Position numbers and translations under genes: made by a program
Shown here: positions 704-57,962 of the stretch, piece by piece
Layout: each line of letters begins with the position of its first letter
How positions within the stretch are numbered: the first letter of the stretch is position 1
Notes under the pieces: model-generated
Databases searched by the model: none
What the model was told of the DNA's origin: nothing
Seen by the model: the letters and a program-made list of their open reading frames with translations, nothing else
Origin: an uncultured Candidatus Saccharibacteria bacterium
GTDB taxonomy: Bacteria; Patescibacteriota; Minisyncoccia; Phycocordibacterales; JABMNX01
NCBI GenBank assembly: GCA_964575755.1
Contig: CAZNRH010000003.1
Location: 2,303 to 66,302 of the forward strand
DNA: 64,000 bases
Direction: 5' to 3'

Positions 704-2452
704 ATGTATATAAATGAAAAACAATTAAAAGAATTTATTCTTGATTCTGGTTTGGTATCTAAGAAAGCTTTTAAGGAAGCTGAAAAGGAGGCCAAGAAAA
801 AAGACCAATCTGTGGGCGATATTCTTGTAAGTAATGGAGACTTCACAGAAGACGATTTGCGCAGAACACAGGCGTACATCCTCGGCATACCTTTTGTGAA
901 TCTTCAGAACAAGCGAATAGATACTGAGGTACTCTCTCTTATTCCTGAACCAATTGCTAGAAATCATAACATTATTGCGTATAAAAAAACCGAAGACAGT
1001 CTTGAGGTTGCCATGTTAAACACTGACAACTTAACTGCAATCGATTTTGTTAAAAAGAAAGTGCGTTTAAAGATATTGCCACGACTTACTGACGCAGGTT
1101 CTATTAAGTCGGCACTCAAGCAGTACCAGAAAAGTCTTAAAGACGAGTTTGGTGACATTATTATGCGTGAGACTGCGTCACTCAAAGGGTTTTCTGGTGA
1201 AGAAGAGAACATGTCTGGCGAGGATCTTAAAAAGCTCGCAGAAGATTTGCCCGTAGTACGTATTGTTGATTCACTTCTTCGCCATGCAGTGAATCAAAAT
1301 GCATCGGATATTCATATTGAGCCGATGGATGATCAGGTTTTGATTCGCTATCGTATTGATGGCATCTTGCATGACGCAATGACTCTCCCTAAAAGTGCGG
1401 CGCCATCTATAACTGCTCGAATTAAAGTTCTCTCAAGTTTAAAACTTGATGAGAAGAGACTGCCACAAGACGGTCGTTTTAAGATGGAGACTGGAAATGA
1501 ACGAGTATCATTTCGTGTTTCTGTATTACCAACATATTACGGAGAAAAGACAGTGATGAGACTTTTACGTGAAGATATTTCTGGATTCACGCTCGAAGGT
1601 TTAGGATTCCACGGTGAAGGACTCGAGAAGATTCATAAAGCAACACGTCGTAAGACAGGAATGATACTGACAACAGGTCCAACAGGCTCTGGTAAGACCA
1701 CAACCCTATATACAATATTAGATATTTTAAATACAACAGATGTAAATATTTCTACTATCGAAGATCCTATCGAATATCAAATGCCAAGGATAAACCAAAC
1801 GCAGGTTAAACCAGATATCGGTTTCACTTTTGCGACAGGGCTCCGTGCTCTTGTACGACAAGATCCAGATGTGATTATGGTGGGGGAGATACGAGACAAT
1901 GAGACAGCATCTCTTGCTATCAATGCAGCCTTGACTGGCCACTTAGTTCTCTCAACGCTCCACACAAACTCTGCAGCTGGAGCTATGCCACGTCTTATGG
2001 ATATGGATTCGGAACCATTTTTGATTGTTTCTACGATAGAAGTAATTATCGGACAGCGTTTGGTTCGACAACTTTGTGACTCAAAAAAAGAGTACATCTT
2101 AACTGATTCAGAAATAAAGAAGCTTGAGAAGGTAGTTGATTTAGACACGGTATTAAAGGCGCTTAAGGAAGAAAAAATAGTAGATAAAAAAGCAACATGG
2201 AAAAGTATTCCTTTTTATAAAGAAGTGTCATCACAAGAATGTGAGGACGGGTTTAGTGGAAGACTTGGTATCCATGAGATTTTGTACATGTCAGATACGA
2301 TTAAAGGTCTGATAATGAAGGGCGCAACTTCAGAGGAGATAGAAGCACAAGCAAAGAGTGATGGCATGATGACTATGATAGAAGATGGAATATTTAAAGC
2401 CGCAAGAGGTATTACGACTATTGAAGAGGTGCTGCGTGTTATTTCTGAATAG
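704..2452 (+). CDS. pilB: Type IV pilus assembly ATPase of the PilB/GspE family
   Basis: Walker A motif GPTGSGKTTT, Asp/His boxes, and a GspE N-terminal domain, all characteristic of T2SS/T4P secretion ATPases. Confidence 0.9.
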   Translation: MYINEKQLKEFILDSGLVSKKAFKEAEKEAKKKDQSVGDILVSNGDFTEDDLRRTQAYILGIPFVNLQNKRIDTEVLSLIPEPIARNHNIIAYKKTEDSLEVAMLNTDNLTAIDFVKKKVRLKILPRLTDAGSIKSALKQYQKSLKDEFGDIIMRETASLKGFSGEEENMSGEDLKKLAEDLPVVRIVDSLLRHAVNQNASDIHIEPMDDQVLIRYRIDGILHDAMTLPKSAAPSITARIKVLSSLKLDEKRLPQDGRFKMETGNERVSFRVSVLPTYYGEKTVMRLLREDISGFTLEGLGFHGEGLEKIHKATRRKTGMILTTGPTGSGKTTTLYTILDILNTTDVNISTIEDPIEYQMPRINQTQVKPDIGFTFATGLRALVRQDPDVIMVGEIRDNETASLAINAALTGHLVLSTLHTNSAAGAMPRLMDMDSEPFLIVSTIEVIIGQRLVRQLCDSKKEYILTDSEIKKLEKVVDLDTVLKALKEEKIVDKKATWKSIPFYKEVSSQECEDGFSGRLGIHEILYMSDTIKGLIMKGATSEEIEAQAKSDGMMTMIEDGIFKAARGITTIEEVLRVISE

Positions 2453-2683
2453 AACGTGCGTTATTGGCGGATTTCTTTGTCACACTTCACTGAATGTCAC
2501 TCGCAGTATGTCTATACAGCTTGCTCTACTTAGCTCGTGCTCCTCGAACTACACCAATGACGCACGTTCTAGATGATACACGTACACTGAATATATTGAA
2601 TGTAGTAAGTTACAAGTAAGAAATGTCAAGTAATGCTATAATTTTTAAATAACTTTCAACTTGATAACTTTTAACTATTTTCC

Positions 2684-3895
2684 ATGCGGTTTATATACAA
2701 AATAAAAAATAAAGACGGAGAGATAATAGAAAGCACTGCAACTGCTCGTGATAAGTTTGAATTGTACGATCAAATTAGAAAAGAAGGCTCGGAAGTAATT
2801 GAAGTGCGCGAACATGGCAAGAACAAATTCTCAATGGATAGGTTTAATGAGATTTTCGGCACAATTAAAGAGCATGAAAAAGTCATCTTAACTCGTAATC
2901 TAGGTGCAATGATAGGTGCAGGACTCTCACTGACAAGAGCTATTACGGTACTCGAGCGTCAAACTAAAAACCAAAAATTAAAAATGGTTCTCGCTGGAAT
3001 TAACAGTGATATAAAAAAGGGTGGCAATTTCCACACTGCATTAAAAAAGTTCCCCAAAGTATTTACACAACTTTTTGTATCCATGGTTCGCGCTGGTGAA
3101 GAGAGCGGTAAGTTATCGGGAGCACTTGATCTCATAGGCGCACAGTTAGAGCGCTCATACACGCTTAAAAAGAAAATAAAAGGAGCGATGATGTACCCGA
3201 GTATTATAATGGTTGCGATGATAATAATTGCCGTGTTGATGCTTATCTTTGTGGTACCAACTTTAACTCAAACATTTGGTGAGCTTGGTGCAGATTTACC
3301 TAAAAGTACGCAAACTATAATCATGGCAAGTGATTTCTTTATACAGCACACGATACTTGCAATAACAATACCAATCGCATTTGTCACTTTTATAATGTAT
3401 GTATTAAAGACAACAAGAGGACGAAGAGCATTTCATTTTATACTGTTGCATACTCCAATAATTGGTGGATTAGTAAAAGAGATTCAGTCAGCACGTACAG
3501 CCAGGACCCTAGCGTCACTCCTCTCGTCTGGAGTTGAGATAGTTACATCTATTTCTATTACTTCAGAGGTGATGCAAAACTCGTATTATAAAGATGTGCT
3601 CTCTCAAGCGCAAAATGACGTGCAAGAAGGCTCGCCTCTGTCGAGAGCATTTACAGAGAATGAACATCTCTATCCAATACTTGTGGGCGAGATGATTTCA
3701 GTTGGAGAGGAGACAGGTAAACTGCCAGATATGCTTCTGCGTGTTGCTGAGTTTTATGAATCAGAGGTTGAGCAAAAAACGAAAGACATGTCTACTATTA
3801 TTGAGCCGTTTCTGATGATTATTATAGGGGCGTTTGTTGGATTCTTTGCTTTGTCTATGATTTCTCCAATATATTCACTTTCAGAAAGTATTTAG
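2684..3895 (+). CDS. pilC: Type IV pilus inner-membrane platform protein of the PilC/GspF family
   Basis: About 400 aa with two GspF-like repeats and three transmembrane segments. It sits immediately downstream of pilB. Confidence 0.85.
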   Translation: MRFIYKIKNKDGEIIESTATARDKFELYDQIRKEGSEVIEVREHGKNKFSMDRFNEIFGTIKEHEKVILTRNLGAMIGAGLSLTRAITVLERQTKNQKLKMVLAGINSDIKKGGNFHTALKKFPKVFTQLFVSMVRAGEESGKLSGALDLIGAQLERSYTLKKKIKGAMMYPSIIMVAMIIIAVLMLIFVVPTLTQTFGELGADLPKSTQTIIMASDFFIQHTILAITIPIAFVTFIMYVLKTTRGRRAFHFILLHTPIIGGLVKEIQSARTARTLASLLSSGVEIVTSISITSEVMQNSYYKDVLSQAQNDVQEGSPLSRAFTENEHLYPILVGEMISVGEETGKLPDMLLRVAEFYESEVEQKTKDMSTIIEPFLMIIIGAFVGFFALSMISPIYSLSESI

Positions 3896-5983: not shown

Positions 5984-6034
5984 GTATCATTTTTCAGAAA
6001 AAATGAAAACAAAAATGAAAACAAAAGAATTATG

Positions 6035-6183
6035 CTCCCTGTTTGCCCAAGCTTTGCTTGGATACAAACAGCAGTGCAGAGCCTCCCTGTTTGCCCAAGC
6101 TTTGCTTGGATACAAACAGCAGTGCAGAGCCTCCCTGTTTGCCCAAGAGCGAAGCGATTGGTTGGCAAACAGCAGTGCAGTGA
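6035..6183 (+). repeat. Tandem array of about 48-nt hairpin-forming repeats. There are two perfect copies plus a third divergent copy, preceded by a 2x12-nt AAATGAAAACAA repeat.
   Basis: The unit CTCCCTGTTTGCCCAAGCTTTGCTTGGATACAAACAGCAGTGCAGAGC occurs at 6035-6082 and 6083-6130. Each unit holds the nested inverted repeats CTGTTTG/CAAACAG and CCAAGC/GCTTGG. Confidence 0.9.
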
Positions 6184-6251
6184 GGTCTTCAGACCGAGTC
6201 GTGAATAAGGAATTAGGAATTAAAAAATATAAAAACAGAGGATACGTAACC

Positions 6252-7619
6252 ATGCTGGTTCTTGTTTTTGCTGGCGTCTTTTTTACAATAGTGTCGGCGC
6301 TTTCAGGTTTTGTTTTTTTACAAAATAAAGTGCAGATTGCAAAAGAAAATAGAGAAAAAGCTTTTCAGATAGCTGAAGCAGGGCTAGATTATTACAAATG
6401 GTTCTTGGCACATTTTCCTAACGACTTAAAAGACGGGACAGGGACGTCTGGTCCGTATGTGCATTCTTACTCAGACCCAGAAGGTGGTGTGGTGGGGAAT
6501 TTCTCTCTTGATATTACTGGTAATACACAGTGTGGAATAGTTACCTCAATAAACATAACCTCGACAGGGGTATCCGATAACGACACCACTCTAGAGAGAG
6601 AGCTATTCGCGAAATATTCCAGACCATCAGTAGCAGAGTACTCTTTCATCCTAAATACAAATGATTGGAAGAAAGACCAGACTATCCTTGGTAAGTATCA
6701 CTCGAACAATGGAGTTCGCATGGACGCAGATAATAAATCGTTAGTGAGTAGCTCGGTAGCAAGTTGGACATGTACATCATCTCGCGGATGTGACCCTGAC
6801 TCAACCGAGGACGGCATCTTTGGAATTGGTGACAGTGCTCTATGGCAGTTTCCTGTACCTCAGATTGACTTTAATGGTATTACTGCTGATTTATCTTCAA
6901 TGAAGAATTTGGCACAAAATAGTGGTGGGATTTATCTCGGTGATTCAGGTGCAGAGGGATATCATATTTATCTACAAAGCGATGGAACGTTTGATGTATA
7001 TAGAGTTGATACTGTTGGAGATGGTTATTGGGCATATAGCTCACAGTGGACGTGGGAGATAGAAAACAATAAAGTTCTTTCGGAGACATTTCTTCAAACA
7101 TACACACCACCAGCAGATTGTAGTTTAGTTTTTGTGGAGGATATGTTGTGGTTGGAGGGTACAGTGAAAGGTAAACTAACAATTGTGTCAGCAGACTTAG
7201 TTAATTCAAATATTGAAACAGATATATATTTAGTAAACAATATAGAATACTCAACTTTAGTTGGTACAGATGGGTTAACAGTAATTGCGGAAGAGGATAT
7301 ATTATTATCTCCTGTAGTTCCAGACGATATGTCCATTCGAGGTATTTTTATAGCTCAAACAGGTCATTTTGGAAGAAATTACTACCACCCTGACAATGGA
7401 TATAGTGTAAGTGAGTCGTATCAGAATTCTTTTACAATAAATGGCTCAATTATTTCAAATGGACGTTCGTCAACTAGGTGGGATTGCCCAGATTATTGTT
7501 CAGGGTTTAATACGCGTAATAACTCATATGATCAGACACAGGCAAATAATCCTCCACCCTTAACTCCGTATACTAGTGATGATTTTAGGTTTGTTCAGTG
7601 GAGAGAAGAAACTTTATAG
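6252..7619 (+). CDS. Membrane-anchored pilus-associated protein (minor-pilin or PilX-like). The ORF track extends it to 6003 through the repeat array, which is unlikely to be coding.
   Basis: An ATG at 6252 with a purine-rich stretch upstream, followed by the N-terminal TM helix MLVLVFAGVFFTIVSALSGFV and a large Cys-containing extracellular domain. Confidence 0.45.
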   Translation: MLVLVFAGVFFTIVSALSGFVFLQNKVQIAKENREKAFQIAEAGLDYYKWFLAHFPNDLKDGTGTSGPYVHSYSDPEGGVVGNFSLDITGNTQCGIVTSINITSTGVSDNDTTLERELFAKYSRPSVAEYSFILNTNDWKKDQTILGKYHSNNGVRMDADNKSLVSSSVASWTCTSSRGCDPDSTEDGIFGIGDSALWQFPVPQIDFNGITADLSSMKNLAQNSGGIYLGDSGAEGYHIYLQSDGTFDVYRVDTVGDGYWAYSSQWTWEIENNKVLSETFLQTYTPPADCSLVFVEDMLWLEGTVKGKLTIVSADLVNSNIETDIYLVNNIEYSTLVGTDGLTVIAEEDILLSPVVPDDMSIRGIFIAQTGHFGRNYYHPDNGYSVSESYQNSFTINGSIISNGRSSTRWDCPDYCSGFNTRNNSYDQTQANNPPPLTPYTSDDFRFVQWREETL

Positions 7620-7640: not shown

Positions 7641-7763
7641 GTATGAATCCCGAACGAAATCGCGGACACAAACATAATATATAATAAATAAGTCGATAAT
7701 TAACAAAAGATTTAATCTAGTGACAAGGATTGTTTAAGTCCGTGTCCTATTTTGTACGGGATG
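7641..7763 (+). promoter_or_regulatory. Structured 5' leader element, copy 1, upstream of tpiA. Long-range helix ATCCCG-A-ACGAAAT..GGACAC / GTGTCC..ATTTTGT-A-CGGGAT encloses an AT-rich loop of about 60 nt and engages the start codon.
   Basis: A near-identical copy lies upstream of pgk, with 3 mismatches over about 123 nt. The ATG is embedded in the 3' strand of the helix. Confidence 0.6.
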
Positions 7764-8525
7764 AAAAAGATAATCATAGCCAACTGGAAGATGAATCCTG
7801 AAAGTGCCACAAAGGCAAAGGAACTCTTTATTGGAGTGAAGCAGGTAGCAAGTAAGCTTTCAAACGTAAAGACTGTTATAGCTACTCCGTTTGTATATTT
7901 ATCAGAGATTAGCAAATTATATCGTGGACATAGAATCGAGTTTGCAGCACAAGATGTATTTTGGGAGAAAAGAGGCTCATTTACTGGAGAGGTAAGCAGT
8001 GCGATGCTTAAAGACAGTGGGGCGACGCATGTCATAGTTGGTCATTCAGAGCGTCGTCTACTTGGCGAAGCAGATGTAGAGGTAAATCAAAAAGTTCTCG
8101 CTTCTACTCAAGCAGGTTTGACTGTTATACTTTGTATTGGCGAATCAGATCGCGATCATAGAGACGGCACACATCTTTCTTTTTTAACCTCACAGTTAGA
8201 ATCAGCACTTAAGGGTATATCTAAAAATAGACTTTCAAAAATTATAATTGCATATGAACCAATTTGGGCAATAGGTAAAAGTGAAGCTGATGCCATGAAG
8301 GGAGATGAGCTTCACGAGACAGTACTTTTTATTAGGAAAGTATTAACAGGTATCTTTGGAAAGAATCTTGCATTCAAAGTTCCTATTTTATACGGCGGGT
8401 CAGCAGGAAAGAGTAATACAGAAGTGTTACTTACCGAAGGTATGGTGGATGGGTTATTGGTAGGGCATGCAAGTCTGAAAATAGCTGAGTTTAGTGATAT
8501 GTTGAAGATAGCGCAAAAAATTTAG
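7761..8525 (+). CDS. tpiA: Triosephosphate isomerase
   Basis: IIANWKMN N-terminus, VGHSERR catalytic motif and the YEPIWAIGTG-like region. The start is taken as the ATG at 7761, which matches the leader/start arrangement of pgk. Confidence 0.9.
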   Translation: MKKIIIANWKMNPESATKAKELFIGVKQVASKLSNVKTVIATPFVYLSEISKLYRGHRIEFAAQDVFWEKRGSFTGEVSSAMLKDSGATHVIVGHSERRLLGEADVEVNQKVLASTQAGLTVILCIGESDRDHRDGTHLSFLTSQLESALKGISKNRLSKIIIAYEPIWAIGKSEADAMKGDELHETVLFIRKVLTGIFGKNLAFKVPILYGGSAGKSNTEVLLTEGMVDGLLVGHASLKIAEFSDMLKIAQKI

Positions 8526-8534
8526 TAAAAAATA

Positions 8535-8657
8535 GTATGAATCCCGAACGAAATCGTGGACACAAACATAATATATGATAAATAAGTCGATAATTAACAA
8601 AAGATTTAATCTAGTGACAAGGATTGTTTAAGTCCGTGTCCTATTCTGTACGGGATG
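8535..8657 (+). promoter_or_regulatory. Structured 5' leader element, copy 2, upstream of pgk
   Basis: About 97% identical to 7641-7763. The helix again ends in gggATG. Confidence 0.6.
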
Positions 8658-9755
8658 AAAAGTATTAAAGATGCAGGAGACGTAAAAGGAAAGAGAGTAC
8701 TTGTTCGAATTGATATTGATGACTCTGGAGTGAGTGCACTCCCCACTAATGCGCTTAAACCAACACTTTCTTATCTTAAAATGGCAGGTGCACGCGTCAT
8801 CCTTTTAGGGCATGTAGGACGTGACGGCAGTGTGTCTTCACGTAAGATTTTTGAAATACTAAAGAAAGAAATAGAGATTAGTTTTATTCCAGACATCGTT
8901 GGAGAAGTAGCCAGAGCAAGCATTAATGAAATGAAAGATGGGGAAGTCGTCTTGTTAGAAAATGTACGTGGCGACACAAGAGAAATGGAAAATGACGAAA
9001 CTTTTTCAAAAGAACTCGCAAGCCTAGCTGACATATATGTAAATGATGCCTTTGCAGTTTCACACAGAGAGCATGCATCACTTACTGGTATAACAAAACA
9101 TTTACCCAGTTATGCAGGACTTCGTTTACTAGAAGAAATAGAGGAGCTCTCTAAAGCCATTAACCCAAAGTCTCCATCCATTTTTATTATCAGTGGAGCA
9201 AAGATAAAGACTAAATTGCCTCTAATAGAAAAATTTATAGAAGTATATGACTATGTATTTGTAGGAGGAGTTCTTGCAAATAACTTCTTTGAAGCTAAAG
9301 GGTTTGAGATTGGCACATCAGTTGTGTCAGATGAGAATATTGATATATCACACCTACTTAATAATGAAAAAGTTCTAATACCAACTGACGTTGTTGTAGA
9401 AGTTGATGGAAAGTCATTAATAAAAAAAGCAGACGGGGTATTAAAAGAAGAAAAAATAGTAGATGCCGGTCCAGAGACTGTCTTAATGCTTAAAGAAAAA
9501 ATTAAAGACATGAACAGTGTTGTATGGAATGGTCCGCTTGGAGAGTATGAGCGTGGTTTTGATACAGCCACCAAAGACTTAGCGCTTGGTATTGCAGAAA
9601 GCCACGCCTATTCAATCGCAGGTGGTGGAGACACTCTTAACGCAATCGCAGATCTCAATATAGAGGAGAAGTTCTCATTTGTCTCAACTGGCGGAGGTGC
9701 AATGCTTGCGTTTTTACTACATGGAACATTGTCTGCAATTGAAGCCTTAAAATAG
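8655..9755 (+). CDS. pgk: Phosphoglycerate kinase (short form)
   Basis: The C-terminal GGGDTLNAI...STGGGAMLAFL signature and an N-terminal substrate-binding region. Confidence 0.85.
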   Translation: MKSIKDAGDVKGKRVLVRIDIDDSGVSALPTNALKPTLSYLKMAGARVILLGHVGRDGSVSSRKIFEILKKEIEISFIPDIVGEVARASINEMKDGEVVLLENVRGDTREMENDETFSKELASLADIYVNDAFAVSHREHASLTGITKHLPSYAGLRLLEEIEELSKAINPKSPSIFIISGAKIKTKLPLIEKFIEVYDYVFVGGVLANNFFEAKGFEIGTSVVSDENIDISHLLNNEKVLIPTDVVVEVDGKSLIKKADGVLKEEKIVDAGPETVLMLKEKIKDMNSVVWNGPLGEYERGFDTATKDLALGIAESHAYSIAGGGDTLNAIADLNIEEKFSFVSTGGGAMLAFLLHGTLSAIEALK

Positions 9756-10491: not shown

Positions 10492-12213
10492 ATGAGCCCC
10501 TATACAATCAAAGAAACCTATAAAGAGAAAGACAAAAAAGAGTTGGAGATGTACCCAGAGTTACTTCAAGAGCTTTTAATAAATAAAGGAATAACAACGA
10601 AAAAAGAAGCTGATATATTTCTAAACCCAGATTATGTTAAACATCTTCACGATCCATTTCTTATAAAAGACATGGACAAGGTTGTGGATAGGATACTACA
10701 GGCAATTTCCAAAAAAGAAAAAATAGTAATCTATAGCGATTACGATTGTGATGGAATCCCAGGAGGGGTGTTACTACACGACTTCTTTAAGAAGATAGAA
10801 TACGAAAACTTTACAAATTATATTCCACACAGACATGATGAAGGGTATGGTCTTAATATCTCTGCAGTAGAAGAGTTTGGAAAAGATAACGCAAAGATTT
10901 TAATTACTGTAGATTGTGGTATCACAGACATAGTGCCAGTTGAAAAAGCGAACGAGTTTGGAATAGATGTAATAATCACAGATCACCACGTCCCTGGGGC
11001 AGACTTACCAAAAGCTTTTGCAATATTAAACTCAAAACAAAAGGGTGATACATACCCATACGACATGCTTTGCGGTACAAGTGTCGCATTTAAGTTAGTG
11101 CAGGCACTTATAGAAAAAGCTGGCAGAGTTAATAGCGGTGTAGGCTTTAATATAAAAGAAGGATGGGAAAAATGGCTCCTTGATATGGTTGGGCTCGCAA
11201 CAATAGCCGATATGGTTCCGCTCACAGGAGAGAACCGTGTTTTAGCCCACTATGGGTTACGTGTACTTCGTAAATCAAGGCGCCCAGGGCTTATGCAGTT
11301 ATGCAGAAAGATGTATATACAACAGAGGAATATAACAGAGGACGATGTTGGTTTTATGATAGTCCCGAGGATAAATGCAGCATCTCGCATGGGAATACCA
11401 ATGGACGCCTTTAACTTACTCTCCACTAAAGATGAAGTAGAGGCTGGAGCGCTTTCAACTCACTTAGATAAAATTAATAACAAGAGAAAGGGTGTGGTTG
11501 GAGCAATAACACGAGAAGTCAAAAAGCGGATAGACGAAGATAATCTAAAAGGTGTGATAGTTATGGGTAATCCAGACTGGAAGCCACCTCTACTTGGTAT
11601 TGTTGCGAACAATGTATCTGAGTTATATAAAAGACCAGTATTTTTATGGGGCAGAGATGGTGGAGAGCACCTTAAAGGGTCATGCAGGTCTGGAAACATA
11701 ATGGACGTTATGGAATTAATGTTAAAAGTAGAGAAAGGTTTGTTTTTGGAGTTTGGTGGGCATGCCTTTTCAGGAGGGTTCTCAGTTAAACACGAAAAGA
11801 TTCATGAACTAGAAGAAGGGCTTCTAAAAGCCTATAAGAAGATGGATAAGAACAAAGAGCCAGAACCAATGAGTGTAGACAAGAAGCTCTCGCTAGACGA
11901 CGTGAGCTGGGATACATACAGTGTGTTAGAGAAGCTAGCACCATTTGGACAAGGTAATAAGAAACCATTATTTCTTTTTGAGAACATAACGATAGAAGAC
12001 GTCAGAGATTTTGGTAAAGATAAAAACCATTTACAAATCGACTTTAAGAAGAAGTCAGGAGGTAAAGTATCAGCAATAGGTTTTTTCAAAACAATAAACG
12101 ACTTTGGCGATAAACTAAAAGAAAGGAATAAGATTGATCTTATAGCAACGATAGATAAATCAACCTTTAGAAACATCATAGAGCTCCGTCTACGTATAGT
12201 AGAAATACTTTAA
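10492..12213 (+). CDS. recJ: Single-stranded-DNA-specific exonuclease RecJ (DHH/DHHA1)
   Basis: DYDCDGI and DHH motifs, plus a DHHA1-like GGH region. Confidence 0.85.
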   Translation: MSPYTIKETYKEKDKKELEMYPELLQELLINKGITTKKEADIFLNPDYVKHLHDPFLIKDMDKVVDRILQAISKKEKIVIYSDYDCDGIPGGVLLHDFFKKIEYENFTNYIPHRHDEGYGLNISAVEEFGKDNAKILITVDCGITDIVPVEKANEFGIDVIITDHHVPGADLPKAFAILNSKQKGDTYPYDMLCGTSVAFKLVQALIEKAGRVNSGVGFNIKEGWEKWLLDMVGLATIADMVPLTGENRVLAHYGLRVLRKSRRPGLMQLCRKMYIQQRNITEDDVGFMIVPRINAASRMGIPMDAFNLLSTKDEVEAGALSTHLDKINNKRKGVVGAITREVKKRIDEDNLKGVIVMGNPDWKPPLLGIVANNVSELYKRPVFLWGRDGGEHLKGSCRSGNIMDVMELMLKVEKGLFLEFGGHAFSGGFSVKHEKIHELEEGLLKAYKKMDKNKEPEPMSVDKKLSLDDVSWDTYSVLEKLAPFGQGNKKPLFLFENITIEDVRDFGKDKNHLQIDFKKKSGGKVSAIGFFKTINDFGDKLKERNKIDLIATIDKSTFRNIIELRLRIVEIL

Positions 12214-12265
12214 AATAATTATCCTCCACATAAACACTTACCACAATAGCGCATCGACAACATGA

Positions 12266-12293
12266 CGAATAGTTCGGTTAACCGAACTATTCG
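12266..12293. promoter_or_regulatory. Perfect 28-bp palindrome CGAATAGTTCGGTTAACCGAACTATTCG, a putative operator, upstream of the yerC-like gene
   Basis: A second copy overlaps the stop codon of the same gene at 12713-12738. Confidence 0.55.
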
Positions 12294-12308
12294 TGGTAGT
12301 ATAAGAGC

Positions 12309-12719
12309 ATGACTTATGTGTCAAAAGGACCTCTTAAAAGTGATATAAAGAAACGCTTAGATAAACAATTTGTTAATACTATTGTATCGCTACGTACCAC
12401 TTCTGGTGGTAAGAACTTTATTTCAGAACTTTTAACAGAATCAGAACAAATAATGCTTGCAAAGCGTTTGATGATGATCTTTATGATTGCAGAAGGCGTG
12501 TCGCAATATAAAATAAAATATTTATTACAAGTCAGCTCTTCTACTGTCTCGCATATAGCGTCAAGGCTTGATTCAGGGGCATATAAACATATAAAGAAAG
12601 ATTGTAGAAGTAAAAGAAATCGTCAGACTTTTTGGGATGAGTTAGAGATTATAGTTAGGCTTGGCATGCCTTCTATGGGCAAGAGACGTTGGGATTGGCT
12701 TGATGGATTATACGAATAG
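12309..12719 (+). CDS. TrpR-like YerC/YecD-family DNA-binding protein
   Basis: The helix-turn-helix region LAKRLMMIFMIAEGVSQYKIKYLLQVSSSTVSHIASRL resembles the YerC/YecD Trp-repressor fold. Confidence 0.55.
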   Translation: MTYVSKGPLKSDIKKRLDKQFVNTIVSLRTTSGGKNFISELLTESEQIMLAKRLMMIFMIAEGVSQYKIKYLLQVSSSTVSHIASRLDSGAYKHIKKDCRSKRNRQTFWDELEIIVRLGMPSMGKRRWDWLDGLYE

Positions 12720-12738
12720 TTCGGTTAACCGAACTATT
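12713..12738. promoter_or_regulatory. Second copy of the 26/28-bp palindrome, overlapping the yerC-like stop codon and lying upstream of rnhA
   Basis: CGAATAGTTCGGTTAACCGAACTATT. Confidence 0.55.
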
Positions 12739-12765
12739 GGAGTGTGTGATATACTTTGCAATATT

Positions 12766-13179
12766 ATGCAGAAGATAATCATTTATACAGACGGTGGTGC
12801 ACGCAACAATCCTGGACCAGCTGGAGCTGGAGCCATTATTTTTGACGAAAGTGGTGAAGTGCTTAAAGAAGCATCGAGATATCTAGGGGAGAGGACGAAT
12901 AATTGGGCTGAATATGAGGCGGTTATTCTTGGTTTCGAAGAAGCAAAGAAGCTTGGGTTAAATGAAAGAGTAATCGAATTTAAAGTTGATAGTCAGTTGA
13001 TACAACAACAACTTTTAGGAAATTATAGGGTCAAAGAACCTGCTTTACGTGAACAATTTACCAAAGTAAGAAATTTTCAAGAGAAAGATTTCCCTAACAT
13101 AACCTTTACTCACATCCCTAGAGAAGAAAACAAAGATGCAGATCGCCTAGCAAACGAAGCAATGGATAGAGGGGAATAG
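12766..13179 (+). CDS. rnhA: Ribonuclease HI
   Basis: IIYTDGGARNNPGPAGAG N-terminus and the DEDD catalytic pattern. Start is placed at the ATG at 12766; the longer 12661 start would overlap the upstream gene. Confidence 0.85.
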   Translation: MQKIIIYTDGGARNNPGPAGAGAIIFDESGEVLKEASRYLGERTNNWAEYEAVILGFEEAKKLGLNERVIEFKVDSQLIQQQLLGNYRVKEPALREQFTKVRNFQEKDFPNITFTHIPREENKDADRLANEAMDRGE

Positions 13180-13202
13180 AAGCAAATATATATGGATAAT
13201 AT

Positions 13203-14684
13203 ATGAAGAATATCGTCTACCTTATTGTTGGTGGGTTTGTTACGGGAGTGTTTTGGCGCTCCTTTTTTGATTTCGGGGTGGAATTCTCCGTATTCGTACT
13301 TAGTTTAGGTGCTGTGGTTTTATTAATGTCGTTTATTTTAAAAAGTAGACGGAATGTGTTGCTTGTTGTTATTTTTATTATTTCCGCAGCATTTGGATTG
13401 TTACGATACGATGTTGCGAACATACATCAAGGTAGTGCGGTGGTAGATAGTTTTGTCAACAAAACTATTCTTGCAGAGGGTATTGTAATAGATGAGCCAG
13501 ATGTGCGAGAGAGAAGCACAAACTACACGATTAAGTTACAAAGTGTTTCTGGAGTAGAGGTTTCAGAGAAGGTGCGTATTGTAGCCAATTCATATCCTCA
13601 GCTTACGTATGGAGATAAAGTTGTGGTGTCAGGTGAACTGCAAAAACCAAAAGGCTTTACAACAGATACTGGGAAATATTTTGACTATGCATCTTTTCTA
13701 TCTAAAGATGATATTTTTTACCAGGTGTTATTCCCTGAATTAGAGTTTGTGTCAGGAGGTCATGGAAATGTTATAAAACAATATTTATTTAGTTTTAAAA
13801 ATGCTTTTCTTTCTAAAATTCAGAGATTGATTCCAGATCCGCAAGTAGCTTTGCTTGGAGGATTGGTAGTTGGCGCTAAACAGTCATTAGGGGAAGAACT
13901 TCAAGATAATTTCCGTACCACTGGAATTATTCATATCGTTGTGTTGTCTGGATACAATGTGACAATTGTTGCAGAAGCCATCATGAGAACTTTTGCATTT
14001 CTTCCAAGACTAGCTGGCATGTCGCTTGGTGTAGTATCGATAGTATTATTTGCTCTTATTACAGGAGCGTCGGCAACTATAGTGCGCGCGAGTATTATGG
14101 CACTGTTTGTAATTTTGGCGCGAGCTACTGGCAGAACTTATGGCATGACGCAAGCATTACTTGTTGCTGGCTTTCTAATGGTCTTACATAATCCAAAGAT
14201 TTTAGTTTATGATGCGTCGTTCCAGCTTTCTTTTCTAGCAACTATTGGTTTGATACATTTTTCTCCTCTTCTTGATAGATATGTATCGTTTGTTCCTTCA
14301 AAGTTGCAGTTTCGAGAGTTTGCAACAGCTACAATAGCAACACAGATTTTTGTACTACCTCTTTTGTTATATAAAATAGGCGAGCTGTCTTTGGTTGCGC
14401 TCCCTGTAAACTTACTGGTACTTATTACAGTGCCAATAACGATGCTTTTCGGATTTCTTGCTGGAATTATCTCATTCGTAAGTTTTTTTCTCGCAACCCC
14501 ATTTGCGTTTATTGCTTACGTATTACTTACATACCAACTCAAAGTGGTCGAGTTGTTTGCAAATGTACCTTTTGCTTCAGTTAAAATTAGCACATTCCCA
14601 CTGTGGCTTATGCTTTTATTTTACGCTGTATATGCAATCATTTTGTGGAAGATTTACAGGAAAACTATTAACTCAATAACATAA
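13203..14684 (+). CDS. comEC: ComEC/Rec2 DNA-uptake channel comprising the N-terminal OB/DUF4131 domain and the competence membrane domain, without a C-terminal MBL domain
   Basis: Multi-TM competence domain with HIVVLSGYN-like motifs. Confidence 0.75.
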   Translation: MKNIVYLIVGGFVTGVFWRSFFDFGVEFSVFVLSLGAVVLLMSFILKSRRNVLLVVIFIISAAFGLLRYDVANIHQGSAVVDSFVNKTILAEGIVIDEPDVRERSTNYTIKLQSVSGVEVSEKVRIVANSYPQLTYGDKVVVSGELQKPKGFTTDTGKYFDYASFLSKDDIFYQVLFPELEFVSGGHGNVIKQYLFSFKNAFLSKIQRLIPDPQVALLGGLVVGAKQSLGEELQDNFRTTGIIHIVVLSGYNVTIVAEAIMRTFAFLPRLAGMSLGVVSIVLFALITGASATIVRASIMALFVILARATGRTYGMTQALLVAGFLMVLHNPKILVYDASFQLSFLATIGLIHFSPLLDRYVSFVPSKLQFREFATATIATQIFVLPLLLYKIGELSLVALPVNLLVLITVPITMLFGFLAGIISFVSFFLATPFAFIAYVLLTYQLKVVELFANVPFASVKISTFPLWLMLLFYAVYAIILWKIYRKTINSIT

Positions 14685-18986: not shown

Positions 18987-19484
18987 ATGCTTCAGTTCGC
19001 AGAAAATTGGTCTTGGGACATTAAGGCTTTGGTTGCTGTTGGGTTGGTATTTTCATTACCCATCCTACTAATCTTCTTTGGAAAACAATACGGAATGAGA
19101 AGCGAGGTGTTTCTCTTGGCGTGGATTGTTGGAGTAAGTGTAGCTTTTATTTTTCTAACTGCGATTTCCGAGACAATGGAAATTATAGAACTGGTTAACC
19201 CTTTTGTGCCTTTCTTGTGCGTTGTCTTATTTGGAGTAATCCTCGGCGGAGTGAGTAACATCCTTATTGCTCAATCAATTGCACAGGCACCTAATCCAGG
19301 ATTACCATGGGCAATATTTTCCATCAGTACACCGCTCGCTTATCTTTTGGCTTATGCTCTTGGAAAGGTATCTCCAACAATGTTTCCTGTGTTTGAATTT
19401 AACTGGGTTAACTTTGCTGGAGTCATTGTACTTGGCATTGGACTTATAATGGTAATGTACCAAACAAATCCATCTACCAATTAA
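18987..19484 (+). CDS. Integral membrane protein
   Basis: Five hydrophobic segments. It is inserted between rpsG and fusA. Confidence 0.5.
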   Translation: MLQFAENWSWDIKALVAVGLVFSLPILLIFFGKQYGMRSEVFLLAWIVGVSVAFIFLTAISETMEIIELVNPFVPFLCVVLFGVILGGVSNILIAQSIAQAPNPGLPWAIFSISTPLAYLLAYALGKVSPTMFPVFEFNWVNFAGVIVLGIGLIMVMYQTNPSTN

Positions 19485-19505
19485 CTCAGGAAATCTTTCA
19501 GCTAA

Positions 19506-19549
19506 CTGGGACTCGAACGATTTGTCGTTTGAGCCCCAGTTTTTCTTTT
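19506..19549 (+). terminator. Intrinsic terminator
   Basis: CTGGGACTC-(nested AACGA/TCGTT)-GAGCCCCAG followed by TTTTTCTTTT. Confidence 0.75.
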
Positions 19550-19682
19550 ATTATTTACTAAATTTTAATTTAATTTTTCAAAACAGGAGTTCTTTAAATG
19601 ACTACTTTCTATTTTCATATAAAAGTGATAGAACTAATACTAGATTAAGATGTAATTTATAAGACAAGGAAGGAGAATACTC

Positions 19683-20339
19683 ATGACTAGATTGAGCCTG
19701 TTCGCACCACTTTTCTTATTTGTATTCACTGCGTGCGCAGTAGTGACACAATACACTGACCCAAAAAAACAAACAGTAGTTGATACAGATCAAGCTCTCG
19801 ATCATTTAACATACGAAGATTGTTTACCTGAGGTGCGTAAAGTTAAAGGCCACAAAAGATTCCCCCCAGAGTTTTCTTTTGTGCGCAGTATAAGCACTAG
19901 AATAATTCTTTGTGATTTTTCTGGCGGAGAAAAGATAAGATTTTTTGGAAAAGTCATAAAAGTTCGTGGCAAGCCAGTATCCTCTGGAAACGGTCTTATC
20001 ATTTTTGACAGGCTGTCGAGAAAAATATCTGCTGACGGTTTAGTCAATGCGTACGCCGACTCAAGCAATAGGTTTAAAATTAATGTCAAAAAGAAACTTA
20101 TTCCTATAGAGAGGTATGGATTACTTCCAGTATTCATTATTTCTGGGAAAATGAAGTTTATTCCAAAGATAGTGATCGGAATGATCGTCGTCATAGACTT
20201 TGAGATAGAAGAAGGGGAGTTCACTGCGCTTATATGGGAATACGGAAACAGGATATCGCAAAGTGAAGTATCAAATCCATTTCAAGAGTTATTGTTAGAC
20301 ACCGTGGCACCTTCTCTTGGCGATGGGTCTGCTACATAA
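19683..20339 (+). CDS. Putative lipoprotein
   Basis: Signal peptide with lipobox LFVFTAC. Confidence 0.5.
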   Translation: MTRLSLFAPLFLFVFTACAVVTQYTDPKKQTVVDTDQALDHLTYEDCLPEVRKVKGHKRFPPEFSFVRSISTRIILCDFSGGEKIRFFGKVIKVRGKPVSSGNGLIIFDRLSRKISADGLVNAYADSSNRFKINVKKKLIPIERYGLLPVFIISGKMKFIPKIVIGMIVVIDFEIEEGEFTALIWEYGNRISQSEVSNPFQELLLDTVAPSLGDGSAT

Positions 20340-20488: not shown

Positions 20489-22633
20489 ATGGAACGAGAA
20501 TATCCACTAGAAAGAGTCCGTAACTTCGGAATTATAGCCCACATCGATGCGGGTAAGACCACTGTGTCTGAGCGCATACTTTTCTATACAGGAGAAAGTC
20601 ATAAGATAGGTGAAGTTCACGACGGAGAGACTGTAACCGACTGGATGGAACAAGAGCGAGAGCGAGGTATCACTATTACCGCCGCCGCTATTTCCTGCTT
20701 GTGGAATAAGACAGATGAAGACCCTGATGATAATTCCAAAAAATACAGTTTTAACATTATTGATACTCCAGGACACATCGACTTCACAGTAGAGGTAAAA
20801 CGCTCAATGAGCGTGCTCGACGGAGCTATTGTTGTATTCGACGGTGTTTCAGGAGTAGAACCACAGTCAGAAACTAACTGGCGATATGCAGACGAAGCCG
20901 GAGTGCCTAGAATATGTTTTATTAACAAGCTTGACCGAACAGGAGCAAGTTTTGAGCGTTCATACGCAAGTATTCTCGATAGACTTTCACCAAATGCAGT
21001 ACGACTTCAGATTCCAATAGGCGAGGAGACAGACCATAAAGGAGTAATAGACCTGCTTGCCATGAAAGGATATACATTTGACGGAGTAATGGGAAAGGAT
21101 GTCATAAAAGGAGAGGTTCCAGAAAACCTTAAAGCAGATGCAGAGAAATATCGAGCAGAGCTTATAGAAAAAATAGTTGAACATGATGATGATCTTATGA
21201 ATCTATACCTTGAAGGTAAAGAGATACCATATGAAGATTTAAAAAGAGTTCTGAGAGTAGCAATTCTTAAGAACGCTATCTTTCCAGTATATGCTGGTTC
21301 AGCACTAAAGAACAAAGGAGTTCAGTTGGTGCTCGACGGCGTTGTTGATTACTTACCGTCACCAATGGACCTTCCGCCAGTAAAAGGAACAGACCCAAAA
21401 ACAGGAGAAGAAATATTACGAAAGCCTTCAGATGATGAACCGTTTGCAGCGCTAGCATTCAAGCTACAAACAGATCCATTTGTTGGTCAGCTTACATTCT
21501 TCCGTGTGTATTCAGGTACAGCAGAAGCTGGTTCATACATTTACAATGCATCAACGAAGAGTAAAGAACGACTCGGGCGAATTGTTCGCTTACAGGCTGA
21601 TAAACGAGAAGAAATAAAGAAAGTATTTGCAGGAGAGATTGCAGCTGCAGTTGGACTTAAAGATACAAAGACATCACACACACTTTGTGACGTAGATAAT
21701 CCAATTATTCTTGAAGAAATTACATTCCCAGAGCCAGTTATATCTCTGCGTATTGAACCTAAGACAAAAGCAGACCAAGAGAAGATGGGAATCGCACTCA
21801 ATAAACTTTCTGACGAGGATCCAACATTTAAAGTGAGTTCAGATTCTGAAACCATGGAGACAGTAATATCAGGAATGGGAGAGCTTCACCTTGAGATTCT
21901 TGTTGACCGTATGAAGAGAGAGTTTAATGTAGAGGCAGATGTAGGAACACCACAAGTGTCTTACAAAGAAACAATCCAAGGAGCGTCAGAAGCTGAAATA
22001 AAATACATAAAACAATCTGGTGGGCGTGGTCAATATGGTCATGTAAAGATTCGAATCAAACCACTTGAAGAGATTGAAGAAGGCGCAAAGATTGCAAAGA
22101 ACATAAAGAGAAGCGACCACTTCGAGTTTGTAAACTCAATTAAAGGAGGCGTTATTCCCCAGGAGTATATTCCAGCAGTTGAGAAGGGTGTTAAAGAAGC
22201 AATGGACAGAGGTATTCTTGCAGGATACAAAGCAGTTGATATTTCAGTAGAGCTTTACGATGGTTCATACCACGATGTTGACTCATCAGAAATTGCTTTC
22301 AAGATTGCAGGTTCACAAGCATTTAAAGATGCAGCAAGTAGAGCAAAGCCAGTACTTCTTGAGCCGATTATGAAAGTAGAAGTAGTAACCCCTGAGAAAT
22401 TCATGGGAGACATCAATGGAAACCTAAGTTCAAAGCGTGGACAGGTTGAAAGCATGGAAGACAGAGGAGGAAACAAGGTAATTAACGCTAAAGTACCTCT
22501 TTCAGAAATGTTTGGATACACCACAACACTACGCTCTATGACAGAAGGGCGAGCAAGTTCAACTATGGAGTTTGACCACTACGCAGTCGTACCTCAAAAT
22601 GTTGCAAAGGATATAATAGATGCAAGGAATTAA
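20489..22633 (+). CDS. fusA: Elongation factor G
   Basis: [10 protein letters not shown]-loop, DTPGHIDF, and domain IV/V motifs. Confidence 0.97.
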
Positions 22634-22719
22634 GTTTCTATTGAAAACCTATATTATATAAATTAGGAATGCCTGCCCCGTAGCTGGACGACTTAAAGGA
22701 GGACGTGGTGACTTAGGTA

Positions 22720-22760
22720 GCAAAAGACATTATCGACGCAAGGAACTAGAGTTTCTATTG
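22720..22760 (+). repeat. Displaced duplicate of the last 10 codons of fusA ([10 protein letters not shown]), carrying only synonymous substitutions
   Basis: Compare 22604-22643 with 22720-22760. Seven codons differ and all encode the same residues. An 85-bp insert separates the two copies. Confidence 0.8.
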
Positions 22761-22772
22761 TAAAATATACAT

Positions 22773-22806
22773 AAATAAATGCCCCAGGTACCTGGGGCAT
22801 TTATTT
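22773..22806. terminator. Perfect palindromic terminator AAATAAATGCCCCAGGTACCTGGGGCATTTATTT (family A)
   Basis: 16-bp stem between fusA and tuf. Related copies occur at 33491, 40024 and 50589. Confidence 0.75.
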
Positions 22807-23016
22807 ATGTATATTTTACGCCAGAATACTTGACTTATACATTCATTTCTTGCTATTATAGCGTCATCGCAATGGGCGCCTTTTTGTATGGGGATTCTTT
22901 TCTCTTGTATATTTAGATGTCTGTAGCTTATTATCAATAAGTATTTTTAAGAAGTAAATCACTTGTTCTCGCGCGTTTACTTTTCAAAAATACTAAATAT
23001 TTTAAATAAAATTATT

Positions 23017-24216
23017 ATGGCAGAAGAATTTGATCGTTCAAAACCACACGTAAACGTAGGAACAATTGGTCACGTTGACCACGGAAAGACTACACTTACA
23101 GCTAGTATCCTTCACGTCCTTAACTTGATGGGAGGAGAGTATGGCTCAAACCTTAAAAACGTTGACCAAATTGATAGCGCACCAGAAGAAAAAGAGCGAG
23201 GTATTACAATCGCGCTTTCTCACAATGAGTACTGGACACCAACACGTCACTATGCTCACATTGATGCTCCTGGCCACGCAGATTACATTAAAAACATGAT
23301 TACTGGTGCAGCACAGATGGACGGCGCAGTATTAGTTGTAGCAGCTTCAGATGGAGTTATGCCACAGACACAAGAGCACATCCTTCTTGCAAAGCAAGTC
23401 GGAGTACCTAAGATCATCGTATTCCTAAACAAGGTAGACCAAGTTGATGACAATGACCTTATTGATCTTGTAGAAGAAGAAGTTCGAGAACTTCTTACAA
23501 AATACGAATTCGACGGTGAAAATGCACCAATTATACGAGGTTCAGGACTTAAAGCTCTAGATGCAACATCAGTTGATGATGAATGGGCAAAGAAAATTAT
23601 TGAGCTTATCAAAGCTATGGACGAATACTTCCCAGTTCCAAAGCGAGATACTGATAAAGATTTCTTAATGCCAATTGAAGATGTCTTCTCAATTGAAGGC
23701 CGCGGCACAGTAGTTACAGGACGAATCGAGAGAGGAATAGTTAAGGTTGGAGAGGAAGTTGAAATCGTTGGTATTAAAGACACAGTGAAGACAACAGTTA
23801 CTGGAGTTGAGATGTTTAACAAACAACTTCAAGAAGGACAAGCTGGAGACAATGCAGGAATTCTTATTCGAGGAATCAAGAAAGAAGATATTCATCGAGG
23901 ACAAGTACTTGCTAAAGTAGGTTCAGTTACTCCTCATACAGAGTTTGAGGCTGAAGTATTTATCCTTAAAAAAGAAGAAGGTGGACGTCACACTCCATTC
24001 TTCACTGGATACAAGCCACAGTTCTACCTTGGAACAACAGACGTTACAGGGGATGTAACACTTGCTGAGGGAACAGAGATGGTTATGCCAGGAGACACAG
24101 TAACATTTAAAGTAAAGCTCGTAGGACCTATCGCACTTGAAGAACAGCAACACTTTGCTATTCGAGAAGGAGGTAAGACTGTTGGAGCTGGAGTTGTTAC
24201 AAAAATAGTCGCATAA
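23017..24216 (+). CDS. tuf: Elongation factor Tu
   Basis: [28 protein letters not shown]. The start is the internal ATG at 23017. Confidence 0.97.
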
Positions 24217-33490: not shown

Positions 33491-33541
33491 AGCCATTTTA
33501 AATGCCCCAGGTGGTTGGGGCATTTAAAATGGCTTGTTTTG
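33491..33541. terminator. Terminator of family A: AGCCATTTTAAATGCCCCA-GGTGGT-TGGGGCATTTAAAATGGCT followed by TGTTTTG
   Basis: 19-bp perfect stem. Confidence 0.85.
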
Positions 33542-50460: not shown

Positions 50461-50816
50461 ATAAATAGTGTCAGTTTTTTGTAAAAAAGTTTCATTAAGT
50501 TTAAGAATACAGCTCTCTGTGGAAGTTACGAAGAAATAGGGTTAAGTATCCACTTTTGATTTTATAGATGGCTTGAATAAGCTAAAATAAATGCCCCAGG
50601 TGGGTGGGGTGAGAGGCGAATACATGGAGCTTCGCAAGAGGTTGTCGATATTCTGACGGAGGAAGGATATAGTACAACCTGAACAGTTCCTGTAAGGAAT
50701 CGGCGCAGGTTTCTAATCTCCTGCCTCGCTAAGCACCTCCTGTCCTAGTTCAGCACTCTTTCGTGCTTTTGCACACGTGCTATAAAATAAAAGAATGGTG
50801 GGGAAAAAATCAAATG

Positions 50817-57540: not shown

Positions 57541-57560
57541 TCTGAGGGTTGTGCATTTTG

Positions 57561-57962
57561 TGGAGATGGGGGGTATCGAACCCCCGTTCAATGAAGGGCT
57601 TATGAATGAATCTACAAAGGTGTAGTCTATTTTTTTCTGCACAAAGTGAACAGATTTAAACTTTATATGTATAAAACAAACAAAATCATATAAAGTCGAG
57701 TTTCTTGAGTTCGGTTGTAAGTCGAAACATTCTTACTTCCTAGACCGATGTTTATGACATCAAGCAAATCGTATCGGACGTCTGATTTGTTGATGGTCGC
57801 TTAGGCCTGAGCGTAAGCGAACTGGAAGTCTTTCATCTGAAAAGGTGAAAGCATTCCGAGTGCAGATTTTTTTGCATCTACATGTTCCAGCTTTTTAAGA
57901 AGTTCTGGTCTTCTACCTTGCACATACATATGCTAACGACACTGTCGAAGCCGATCATCCCC
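57561..57962 (-). ncRNA. ssrA: tmRNA (SsrA), about 402 nt
   Basis: - The 5' end GGGGATGATCGGCTTCGACAG resembles the tmRNA 5' consensus GGGGCUGAUUCUGGAUUCGACGG.
- The 3' end GGGGGTTCGATACCCCC-CATCTCC-A forms a T-arm plus acceptor strand.
- The acceptor helix carries a G3.U70 pair.
- The 3' end is followed by a 15-bp processing hairpin.
- smpB is adjacent.
- A candidate tag ORF GCA AAA ... GCC TAA begins about 88 nt from the 5' end. Confidence 0.8.

Follow-up and report, generated by a model that had tools for sequence, protein, structure and literature searches.

Why should the end of an essential gene be present twice? In the window, by which we mean the whole 64,000-nucleotide stretch analysed here from an uncultured Candidatus Saccharibacteria bacterium (contig CAZNRH010000003.1 of assembly GCA_964575755.1), the fusA gene encoding EF-G ends on the + strand with GTT GCA AAG GAT ATA ATA GAT GCA AGG AAT TAA (copy 1, 22601–22633), in frame with the rest of the gene. 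A second version of the same ending, GTA GCA AAA GAC ATT ATC GAC GCA AGG AAC TAG (copy 2, 22717–22749), stands on the same strand 116 nt further downstream, measured from start to start, and both encode an identical peptide of 10 residues followed by a stop. As had been claimed in a first, sequence-only reading of this DNA, the repeat of the last ten fusA codons is real, seven of the ten sense codons being different, each by a synonymous third-position change, with TAA in copy 1 replaced by TAG in copy 2; its start had been given as 22604 and is to be moved to the Val codon at 22601. Judged against a sister genome, the DNA from 22601 to 22716 emerges as an insertion that provided EF-G with a new terminus and displaced the old one.

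Read from copy 1 to copy 2, the changes run T>A, G>A, T>C, A>T, A>C, T>C, T>C and A>G. The probability that all seven substitutions in sense codons would fall at third positions is 5.9e-5, and the number of differing codons is close to that given by two independent back-translations of the peptide with the codon usage of this genome (expected 5.9). A random 33-mer of the same composition would encode the peptide and the stop with a probability of 5.7e-15, or ~8.5e-12 across 1500 start positions, and a chance origin of copy 2, already considered unlikely in the sequence-only reading, is thus excluded at ~1e-11. The flank GTTTCTATTG follows both copies as reported, although it is offset by one extra A that precedes it after copy 2. 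Between the first stop and the start of copy 2 there are 83 nt, where about 85 bp had been described; the description of this spacer as unrelated sequence has to be given up, since the stretch after copy 1 aligns significantly with that after copy 2 (0/500 shuffles). The copies diverge at 8 of 11 third positions and at none of the 10 positions of the adjacent flank (Fisher P=0.001), so that the duplicate is not uniformly decaying in situ. With all seven sense differences at third positions and an unchanged flank, a neutrally evolving duplicate, which would have spoken against an insertion, is not what is observed.

That an assembler joined two strain alleles of the fusA 3' end is extremely improbable. 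The sequences were indeed assembled from metagenomes, and single samples can contain related species side by side (L082 and L083 in ERZ24794644); the longest exact run common to copy 1 and copy 2 is, however, at most 11 nt, so that there was no k-mer path by which to join them. Moreover, the arrangement of L083, a relative with a duplicate of its own, was assembled identically in independent samples (L083 and L084), and analogous structures come from different studies and assemblers.

The polarity of the two copies follows from comparison with L214, a contig from GCA_964625905.1 that was found through its EF-G (P0121), the second member of the 90% cluster of the window EF-G; exact-protein look-ups of the window EF-G and EF-Tu returned no record. 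P0121 and the window EF-G are identical at 709 of 714 positions, and the closest relatives of the latter are Patescibacteria of the Parcubacteria/Kaiserbacteria-Adlerbacteria type. L214 runs from ...CAAAAT directly into a single tail of the copy-2 type, GTT GCA AAA GAC ATT ATC GAC GCT AGA AAC TAG AGTTTGTATCA. This tail differs from copy 2 at 3/33 positions, all of them third positions, as expected from the background third-position divergence between window and L214 (26% in fusA, 20% in tuf), and from copy 1 at 9/33, corresponding to 9/11 third positions (P=1.5e-4 against the 26% background). The L214 terminator and promoter are likewise orthologous to the region after copy 2 (z 9.1), and the L214 3' untranslated region (3'UTR) shows no similarity to the window spacer (z about -1). 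Since the single tail of L214 matches copy 2 and not copy 1, 22717–22749 is assigned as the native tail, and the 116 bp at 22601–22716 as an insertion that separates codon 704 (AAT) from native codon 705; on this comparison, copy 1 is a replacement tail of foreign character, and copy 2 is the native one, now displaced. The earlier proposal that an insertion had brought its own terminus and pushed the original downstream agrees with L214 as an empty site with one tail.

The locus has the gene order of the str operon, with rpsL, rpsG, two unannotated open reading frames (ORFs), fusA and then tuf, and its parts from fusA onwards are as follows:
20489–22633, + strand: fusA (EF-G, 714 aa) as now translated, 100% identical to P0001 and with EF-G Pfam domains, the last 10 codons supplied by the insertion.
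20948–21972, + strand: recombination tract of 1025 nt, 100% identical to L214 in a background of ~8–12% divergence.
22601–22716, + strand: 116-bp insertion relative to L214, consisting of replacement tail, flank, AT-rich linker and hairpin-module remnant.
22601–22633, + strand: copy 1, the inserted replacement tail with TAA, current functional EF-G terminus.
22634–22643, + strand: flank F1, GTTTCTATTG, identical to the flank after copy 2.
22644–22669, + strand: AT-rich linker of the insertion, resembling the native 3'UTR after copy 2 (0/500 shuffles; z 6–7).
22670–22716, + strand: hairpin-module remnant of 47 nt, GCCTGCCCCGTAGCTGG...GTGGTGACTTAG, homologous to the L083 and L003 spacers, its 3' end adjoining the displaced tail.
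22717–22749, + strand: copy 2, displaced native fusA tail with TAG, probably an untranslated relic, with a stop immediately upstream.
22750–22760, + strand: native flank F2, AGTTTCTATTG, the L214 counterpart of which is AGTTTGTATCA.
22753–22826, no strand assigned: native fusA terminator, a 29-bp perfect stem with core GCCCCAGGTACCTGGGGC, then a T-run (-45 kcal/mol, z -10.7).
22830–22859, + strand: tuf promoter-like site TTGACT-18-TATTAT, conserved in relatives.
23017–24216, + strand: tuf (EF-Tu), conserved right-hand border of the variable fusA–tuf interval.

The palindrome of the native terminator is the longest hairpin in the window and differs from its L214 ortholog in stem bases on both arms; a conserved leader follows the promoter-like site of tuf. 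The hairpin core ATGCCCCAGGT is found at three intergenic sites of the window, 22779–22800, 33502–33512 and 50591–50601 (4 matches; a number reached in 0/100 shuffles). The outer stems of the two complete hairpins (22779 and 33502) are AT-rich, different from each other and perfectly complementary, and these hairpins may represent a repetitive extragenic palindrome (REP)-like or otherwise spreading terminator family.

Was the DNA inserted at a point, or was the end of the gene replaced by homologous exchange? In 100-nt windows upstream of the insertion, 5–19 differences per 100 nt from L214 were counted (8–11 in the adjoining 300 nt), which is within the range of tuf and rpsL/rpsG and below the 80% third-position divergence of copy 1. 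No donor-type tract was visible beside the insert in the upstream 60–600 nt of this comparison, and the sequence downstream is native. With divergence at background upstream and native sequence downstream, insertion at a point fits better than homologous replacement. The 22 non-third sites of copy 2 are all unchanged, where 3.4 changes would be expected if its relic state dated back to the split from L214 (P=0.03), which suggests that the insertion is probably younger than that split.

The fusA gene has also exchanged DNA by homologous recombination. The 1025-nt tract (fusA nt 460–1484, L214 3460–4484) is without a single difference, for which the probability is about 1e-47 at 10% per nt, and outside of it the flanking fusA, tuf and rpsL/rpsG sequences differ by ~5–19 per 100 nt; by this measure the tract is the product of recent inter-lineage recombination inside fusA. 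A sliding comparison of fusA with ~20%-diverged relatives gave no mosaic signal, the mosaic being visible solely against L214. The tract keeps alive the alternative named in the sequence-only reading, a recombination scar with a second fusA allele, which we regard as the main rival, if on the whole an unlikely one. According to this scheme, DNA of a related Patescibacterium with its fusA 3' end, 3'UTR and terminator hairpin would have been taken up and joined without an integrase, with a single contact, homologous or of short homology, where the tail begins and a single illegitimate microhomology joint directly after the donor hairpin, through homology-facilitated illegitimate recombination (HFIR) or template switching. 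Apart from the tract itself, several observations are in its favour. The window encodes ComEC, RecJ and the type IV pilus ATPase (T2SSE) and platform protein (T2SSF), and Saccharibacteria are naturally competent (PMC10633639). HFIR after natural transformation requires one homologous end only (PMC3240628), and hotspots of horizontal gene transfer in transformable bacteria may lack an integrase and recombine at flanking core genes (PMC5635113). The fusA–tuf interval is a hotspot of accessory genes without mobility genes, junction positions and insert sizes differ between lineages, and copy 1 is a mosaic. The last G of the hairpin, followed by GTN, could have provided a G/GT(T) microhomology with the T-run of a terminator; where the hairpin base meets the Val codon, G/GT(N) alone is present as microhomology.

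The scheme is at odds with the lack of a donor-type tract on the homologous side of the insert, the upstream 600 nt being at background, and with the recurrence of the same joint and of homologous spacers in three lineages, for which identical illegitimate joints would have to be made repeatedly, or transfer would have to proceed via ~33 nt of right-hand homology. The spacers are, in addition, alike among themselves and unlike the native 3'UTRs of the relatives sampled. The uptake and processing genes of the window (T2SSE, T2SSF, RecJ, an RNase H-like protein and ComEC) are clustered at 704–3895 and 10492–14684.

An origin of both copies in place was also considered. A tandem duplication of the native tail and terminator unit (~116–120 nt), for example by replication slippage at the palindrome, with later patching by foreign alleles, would explain why the regions after copy 1 and copy 2 are alike, why the flank is identical and why codons 8–9 of both copies agree against L214, and the native terminator is an unusually long perfect palindrome. 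We nevertheless consider this origin quite improbable, given the contrast between diverged third positions and unchanged flank, the divergence of copy 1 from L214 at 9/11 third positions in a 26% background, and a hairpin part of the spacer that resembles the spacers of L083 and L003 more than it does the native hairpin; two or more additional patches of foreign origin would also have to be assumed.

As to the content of the insert, codons 3–7 of copy 1 (AAG GAT ATA ATA GAT) are unlike the native copy and L214 and match the copy-1 type of L083, the copies 1 of window and L083 having GAT ATA ATA GAT and TAA(A)GTTT in common. Codons 8–9 and the flank, in turn, side with the native copy against L214 at 5/6 informative sites, so that copy 1 is a mosaic. 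The codon ATA, used twice in the inserted tail, is read directly by a tRNA-Ile with anticodon TAT encoded at 61974–62048 on the - strand. Homology links the hairpin-module remnant with a perfect 21-bp hairpin of L083 and with two imperfect ones of L003; in the window the remnant no longer folds (z +1.4), the L083 counterpart having a z of -8.5. The spacers of window, L083 and L003 are mutually similar (z 5–8) and unlike the native 3'UTRs of single-tail relatives. In 4/4 junctions (window, L083 and L003) the last base of the hairpin adjoins the Val codon that opens the displaced tail. The two hairpins of L003 are 95% identical to each other, and the AT-rich linkers of L003 are saturated.

The recurrence of such scars was surveyed at ~95 fusA loci from genomes and metagenomes, comprising ~1 Mb of fusA neighbourhoods, with a detection threshold that favours intact or identical tail copies. 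A recoded duplicate, VAKDIIDSRS* (Ser AGT vs TCA, Arg AGA vs CGT), is present in L083/L084 at the same insertion codon as in the window and with a spacer homologous to that of the window. L003 possesses three tails and two spacers, equivalent to two tandem units, and L038 contains a 56-nt identical block followed by five recoded codons, with a period of 219 nt. A recoded duplicate with a spacer of 26 nt is found in L049, where a type I restriction-modification system lies just after tuf. In L001, the two copies of a 37-codon segment lie 3.1 kb from each other, and between them are a terminator, small ORFs and the gene for a PG_binding_1 surface protein of 827 aa. Duplication begins at codon -10 in the window and in L083, at -14 in L003, at about -23 in L038, at -37 in L001 and at another position in L049, and copy spacings across the duplicate-bearing lineages are 116, 125, 114, 219 and 59 nt. 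Within the window's own clade of 10 lineages, including L214 and L170, the duplicate is restricted to the window and L083 (2/10).

No recoded tail duplicates were detected in ~30 non-Patescibacteria loci, and none at genes other than fusA in the ~1 Mb covered, where the earlier suggestion to look for similar 3'-end duplications at other conserved genes therefore found nothing. The comparison of this junction among related genomes, suggested likewise, gave presence and absence within the clade and fusA scars in other Patescibacteria, and no intact element with an integrase. A degenerate VAKDIIDxR scan of metagenome contigs returned 77 loci with just one fusA tail (L159), in single copy. Among the loci surveyed there were no half-decayed tails, the relics being either intact or absent, which may be due to fast deletion, to the detection threshold or to selection. 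Across these genomes, the end of fusA stands out as a repeated landing site for foreign DNA in Patescibacteria. In many of them (L001, L005, L008, L011, L066, L071 and others) the fusA–tuf interval holds 1.5–4.9 kb of accessory genes without mobility genes, and ORFs in 13 such enlarged gaps encode pilin-like, PG-binding, cupredoxin, NUDIX and unknown proteins.

By what route, then, did the insert arrive? ICEs (integrative and conjugative elements) and IMEs (integrative and mobilizable elements) that use tyrosine integrases are targeted to the 3' ends of rpsI, rpmG, rplL and fda, and those of streptococci leave behind cis-mobilizable elements (CIMEs) and gene-less microCIMEs of 130–220 bp, also in tandem (PMC7563491). 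Our favoured explanation, a tentative one rated a little short of an even chance, is that 22601–22716 is a gene-less 116-bp miniature integrative module like the streptococcal microCIMEs. Such a module would have been inserted precisely between fusA codons 704 and 705 of a Parcubacteria-type Patescibacterium. It would open with its own synonymously recoded last ten codons and stop, leaving EF-G intact, and continue with a short flank, an AT-rich linker and a hairpin module whose last base abuts the native Val codon. The native tail would thereby have been pushed behind a stop codon, to persist as an untranslated relic ahead of the native terminator and the tuf promoter. Arrival may have occurred by conservative site-specific insertion of the attachment-site (att) type, with a recombinase acting in trans and not encoded nearby, or the module may be what a larger element left behind on losing its interior; after insertion, the 3' part of copy 1, together with its flank, would have been homogenised with the native copy.

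Several lines of sequence comparison are consistent with this explanation: the polarity of the copies, the empty site in L214, the probably recent gain and the point insertion without a visibly co-converted flank; the use of the same codon and a homologous module end in L083, the mutually similar spacers, the tandem units of L003, the 219-nt period of L038 and the cargo-bearing L001; and the copy-1 allele common to window and L083, together with the restriction of tail duplicates to fusA and to Patescibacteria.

A number of observations weigh against it. The codon at which the duplication begins varies from lineage to lineage, and a single conserved core is not evident. The mosaic nature of copy 1, with native-like codons 8–9 and flank, requires an extra conversion step. 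The lineage recombines within fusA and encodes the uptake genes named above, so that a route without an integrase exists. The hairpin module is present at four junctions only, too few for covariation or core mapping. Finally, integrase (Phage_integrase), resolvase and transposase domains were absent from the 30 window ORFs tested and from the ORFs of the 13 enlarged fusA–tuf gaps; neither these enzymes nor a full-length element were found at the six duplicate-bearing loci, and no fusA-tail attP was found in IMG/VR. Three IMG/VR matches to fusA relatives showed neither a duplicated tail nor a fusA fragment beside phage DNA, and in two of the three a tRNA gene directly follows fusA. The statement in the sequence-only reading that most of the element has since been lost is hence an assumption, because no intact element or integrase was found in any of these places.

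The likeness to CIMEs and microCIMEs extends to a gene-less insert of ~100–200 bp, to direct repeats that include a gene 3' end, the upstream one of which preserves the ORF, to tandem arrays (L003), to cargo versions without recombination genes (L001) and to empty sites in close relatives. Unlike in those systems, no cognate integrase-bearing ICE, IME or phage was seen at fusA, the phylum and the target are not the same, the repeats have almost all of their wobble positions recoded and no identical core, the start of the repeat varies by lineage, and a conserved hairpin adjoins the displaced tail. Like att-flanked remnants, the insert is bracketed by repeats, leaves the ORF intact, was placed precisely and has an empty counterpart site in a relative; a cognate recombinase was not found at the ~95 loci, and we therefore class the insert as microCIME-like in its workings, short of proven membership. 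With the ICESt3 family of tyrosine-integrase elements, which use the 3' ends of protein or tRNA/tmRNA genes, it shares incoming DNA that restores the reading frame with its own terminus and a native terminus displaced to the far att site; searches for the enzyme that defines the family, and for a circular or phage form bearing attP, gave nothing here. The resemblance to HFIR and to integrase-free hotspots lies in a competence-equipped lineage, a hotspot between conserved genes, the absence of mobility genes and recombination within a flanking core gene, and the difference in the missing donor tract, in a joint that recurs in three lineages and in an insert that is a shared hairpin-bearing module.

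Two nearby copies of a gene 3' end with a hairpin close by are also reminiscent of the repeats of diversity-generating retroelements. A template and variable repeat pair of this kind was rejected, the changes being not adenine-specific and all synonymous, with no reverse transcriptase; the sole RVT_3 match in the window is an RNase H-type protein. The hairpin was likewise compared with tRNA-like structures and group II domain V, which were rejected as there was neither an AGC triad nor an ARAGORN match, and with integron attC sites, of which the R''/R' boxes are missing.

Does the displaced copy still serve a purpose? Copy 2 of the window comes directly after a stop codon and has no in-frame start codon upstream; in L083, L003 and L049 none exists between the previous stop and the copy, and the tail-copy spacings among lineages have no common frame. 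With no start and no common frame, the coding-like conservation of copy 2 is historical, and from these sequences the displaced native tail is an untranslated relic; the scar itself looks inert. A second translated terminus, whether reached by bypass, by read-through or as a small ORF, was rejected on the same two grounds. An antisense ORF at 22693–22800 was rejected as a source of constraint, as it uses the same codon triplets as copy 2, sense third positions being antisense first positions. The observation that both copies track lineage-specific residues was dropped as a sign of selection on copy 2, because DSRS is common in the clade and the detection threshold favours identical tails; the window residues concerned lie within a near-identical 23-nt block.

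A maintained functional arrangement, in which the region would act as an RNA element of the fusA 3'UTR or tuf leader, as a backup terminus or as a translated or bypassed second ending, is very unlikely. Intact downstream tails in window, L083, L003 and L038, relics that are never half-decayed, the 95% identity of the L003 hairpins next to saturated linkers and the related motif in phage-like contigs described below could all be cited for it. The missing start and frame, the decayed window hairpin, the absence from L214 and from 8/10 members of the clade, the lack of an Rfam match and a detection threshold that itself favours intact copies weigh against it.

The related motif, TGCCTGCCCCGTAGCTCCGGGAGATGGTACTGGGGTGAGAG, was found in intergenic DNA of phage-like IMG/VR contigs, namely L179 (5360–5390), L192 (7001–7031), L204 (5426–5456) and L207, which holds two inverted copies (3490–3520 and 8840–8870). 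These contigs encode Mu-like head and tail genes and Mtd_N proteins. TGCCTGCCCCGTAGCTCCGGGAGATGGTACTGGGGTGAGAG and the window spacer have 16 consecutive bases in common, and both ends of the motif (TGCCCCGTAGCTCC and GATGGTACTGGGG, 27 bases) match the L003 hairpin. A scan of IMG/VR with the hairpin pattern gave 43 matches, mostly chance or plain terminators, and four contigs with a truly similar motif; in these it lies in intergenic DNA of the tail-gene module or between methyl- and glycosyltransferase genes, with no integrase adjoining. The window, L038 and the phage motif had no match in Rfam, only generic hairpins being hit below the gathering scores.

It is conceivable, though improbable, that the hairpin unit (replacement tail, linker and GCCCCGTAGC...GGTACNGGGG) represents a new kind of mobile module, active and non-autonomous, or that the hairpin is a selected RNA element hitch-hiking with the tail. 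An active module of this type would be specialised on the last codons of fusA across Patescibacteria, where its recoded tail makes the insertion harmless, and would be mobilised in trans by a recombinase recognising the hairpin; it would be kin to the near-identical hairpin motif of the phage-like contigs.

The type of scar is already known; new details are the fusA target, the phylum, a recoding that reaches almost every wobble position, and a shared hairpin directly next to the displaced tail. A displaced gene end alone would hardly surprise a specialist; a recurrent, hairpin-ended module without an integrase merits a systematic survey. The locus provides a clean and dated example of foreign DNA entering an essential conserved gene without damaging it, with a sister genome that has kept the empty site, and it marks the fusA–tuf boundary as a place where DNA has entered repeatedly in Patescibacteria, a group in which little is known about mobile elements and modes of recombination. 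Were a dedicated recombinase or a hairpin-guided mechanism responsible, the site could be a natural landing pad for genetic tools in bacteria that are hard to manipulate. Should the scar arise without an integrase, it would document illegitimate or short-homology recombination in naturally competent ultra-small bacteria. For annotation, the short ORF-like copy downstream of fusA is to be treated as a relic and not as a gene.

Some further features of the window and of the str operon were observed. One or two unannotated ORFs lie between rpsG and fusA across the clade (18987–20339 in the window, 2202–2870 in L214; also in L082, L083 and L163–166), and the rpsG–fusA interval, ~50% diverged or unalignable between window and L214, is a second variable spot in the operon. 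A near-identical direct repeat of 125 nt (7641–7770 and 8535–8660) comprises the upstream region and first codons of tpiA (7752–8525) and of pgk (8655–9755), so that the duplicated 5' region brackets tpiA. An exact tandem repeat with a 48-nt period is found at ~6035–6147, inside or beside an ORF at 6003–7619 that has no Pfam match. A gene for transfer-messenger RNA (tmRNA) with the tag AKKSALGMLSPFQMKDFQFAYAQA is located at 57558–57962 on the - strand. A perfect 30-nt palindrome (ACGAATAGTTCGGTT/AACCGAACTATTCGT) at 12265–12294 is repeated ~447 nt downstream at ~12712–12738, and its two copies bracket a Trp-repressor-like ORF at 12309–12719.

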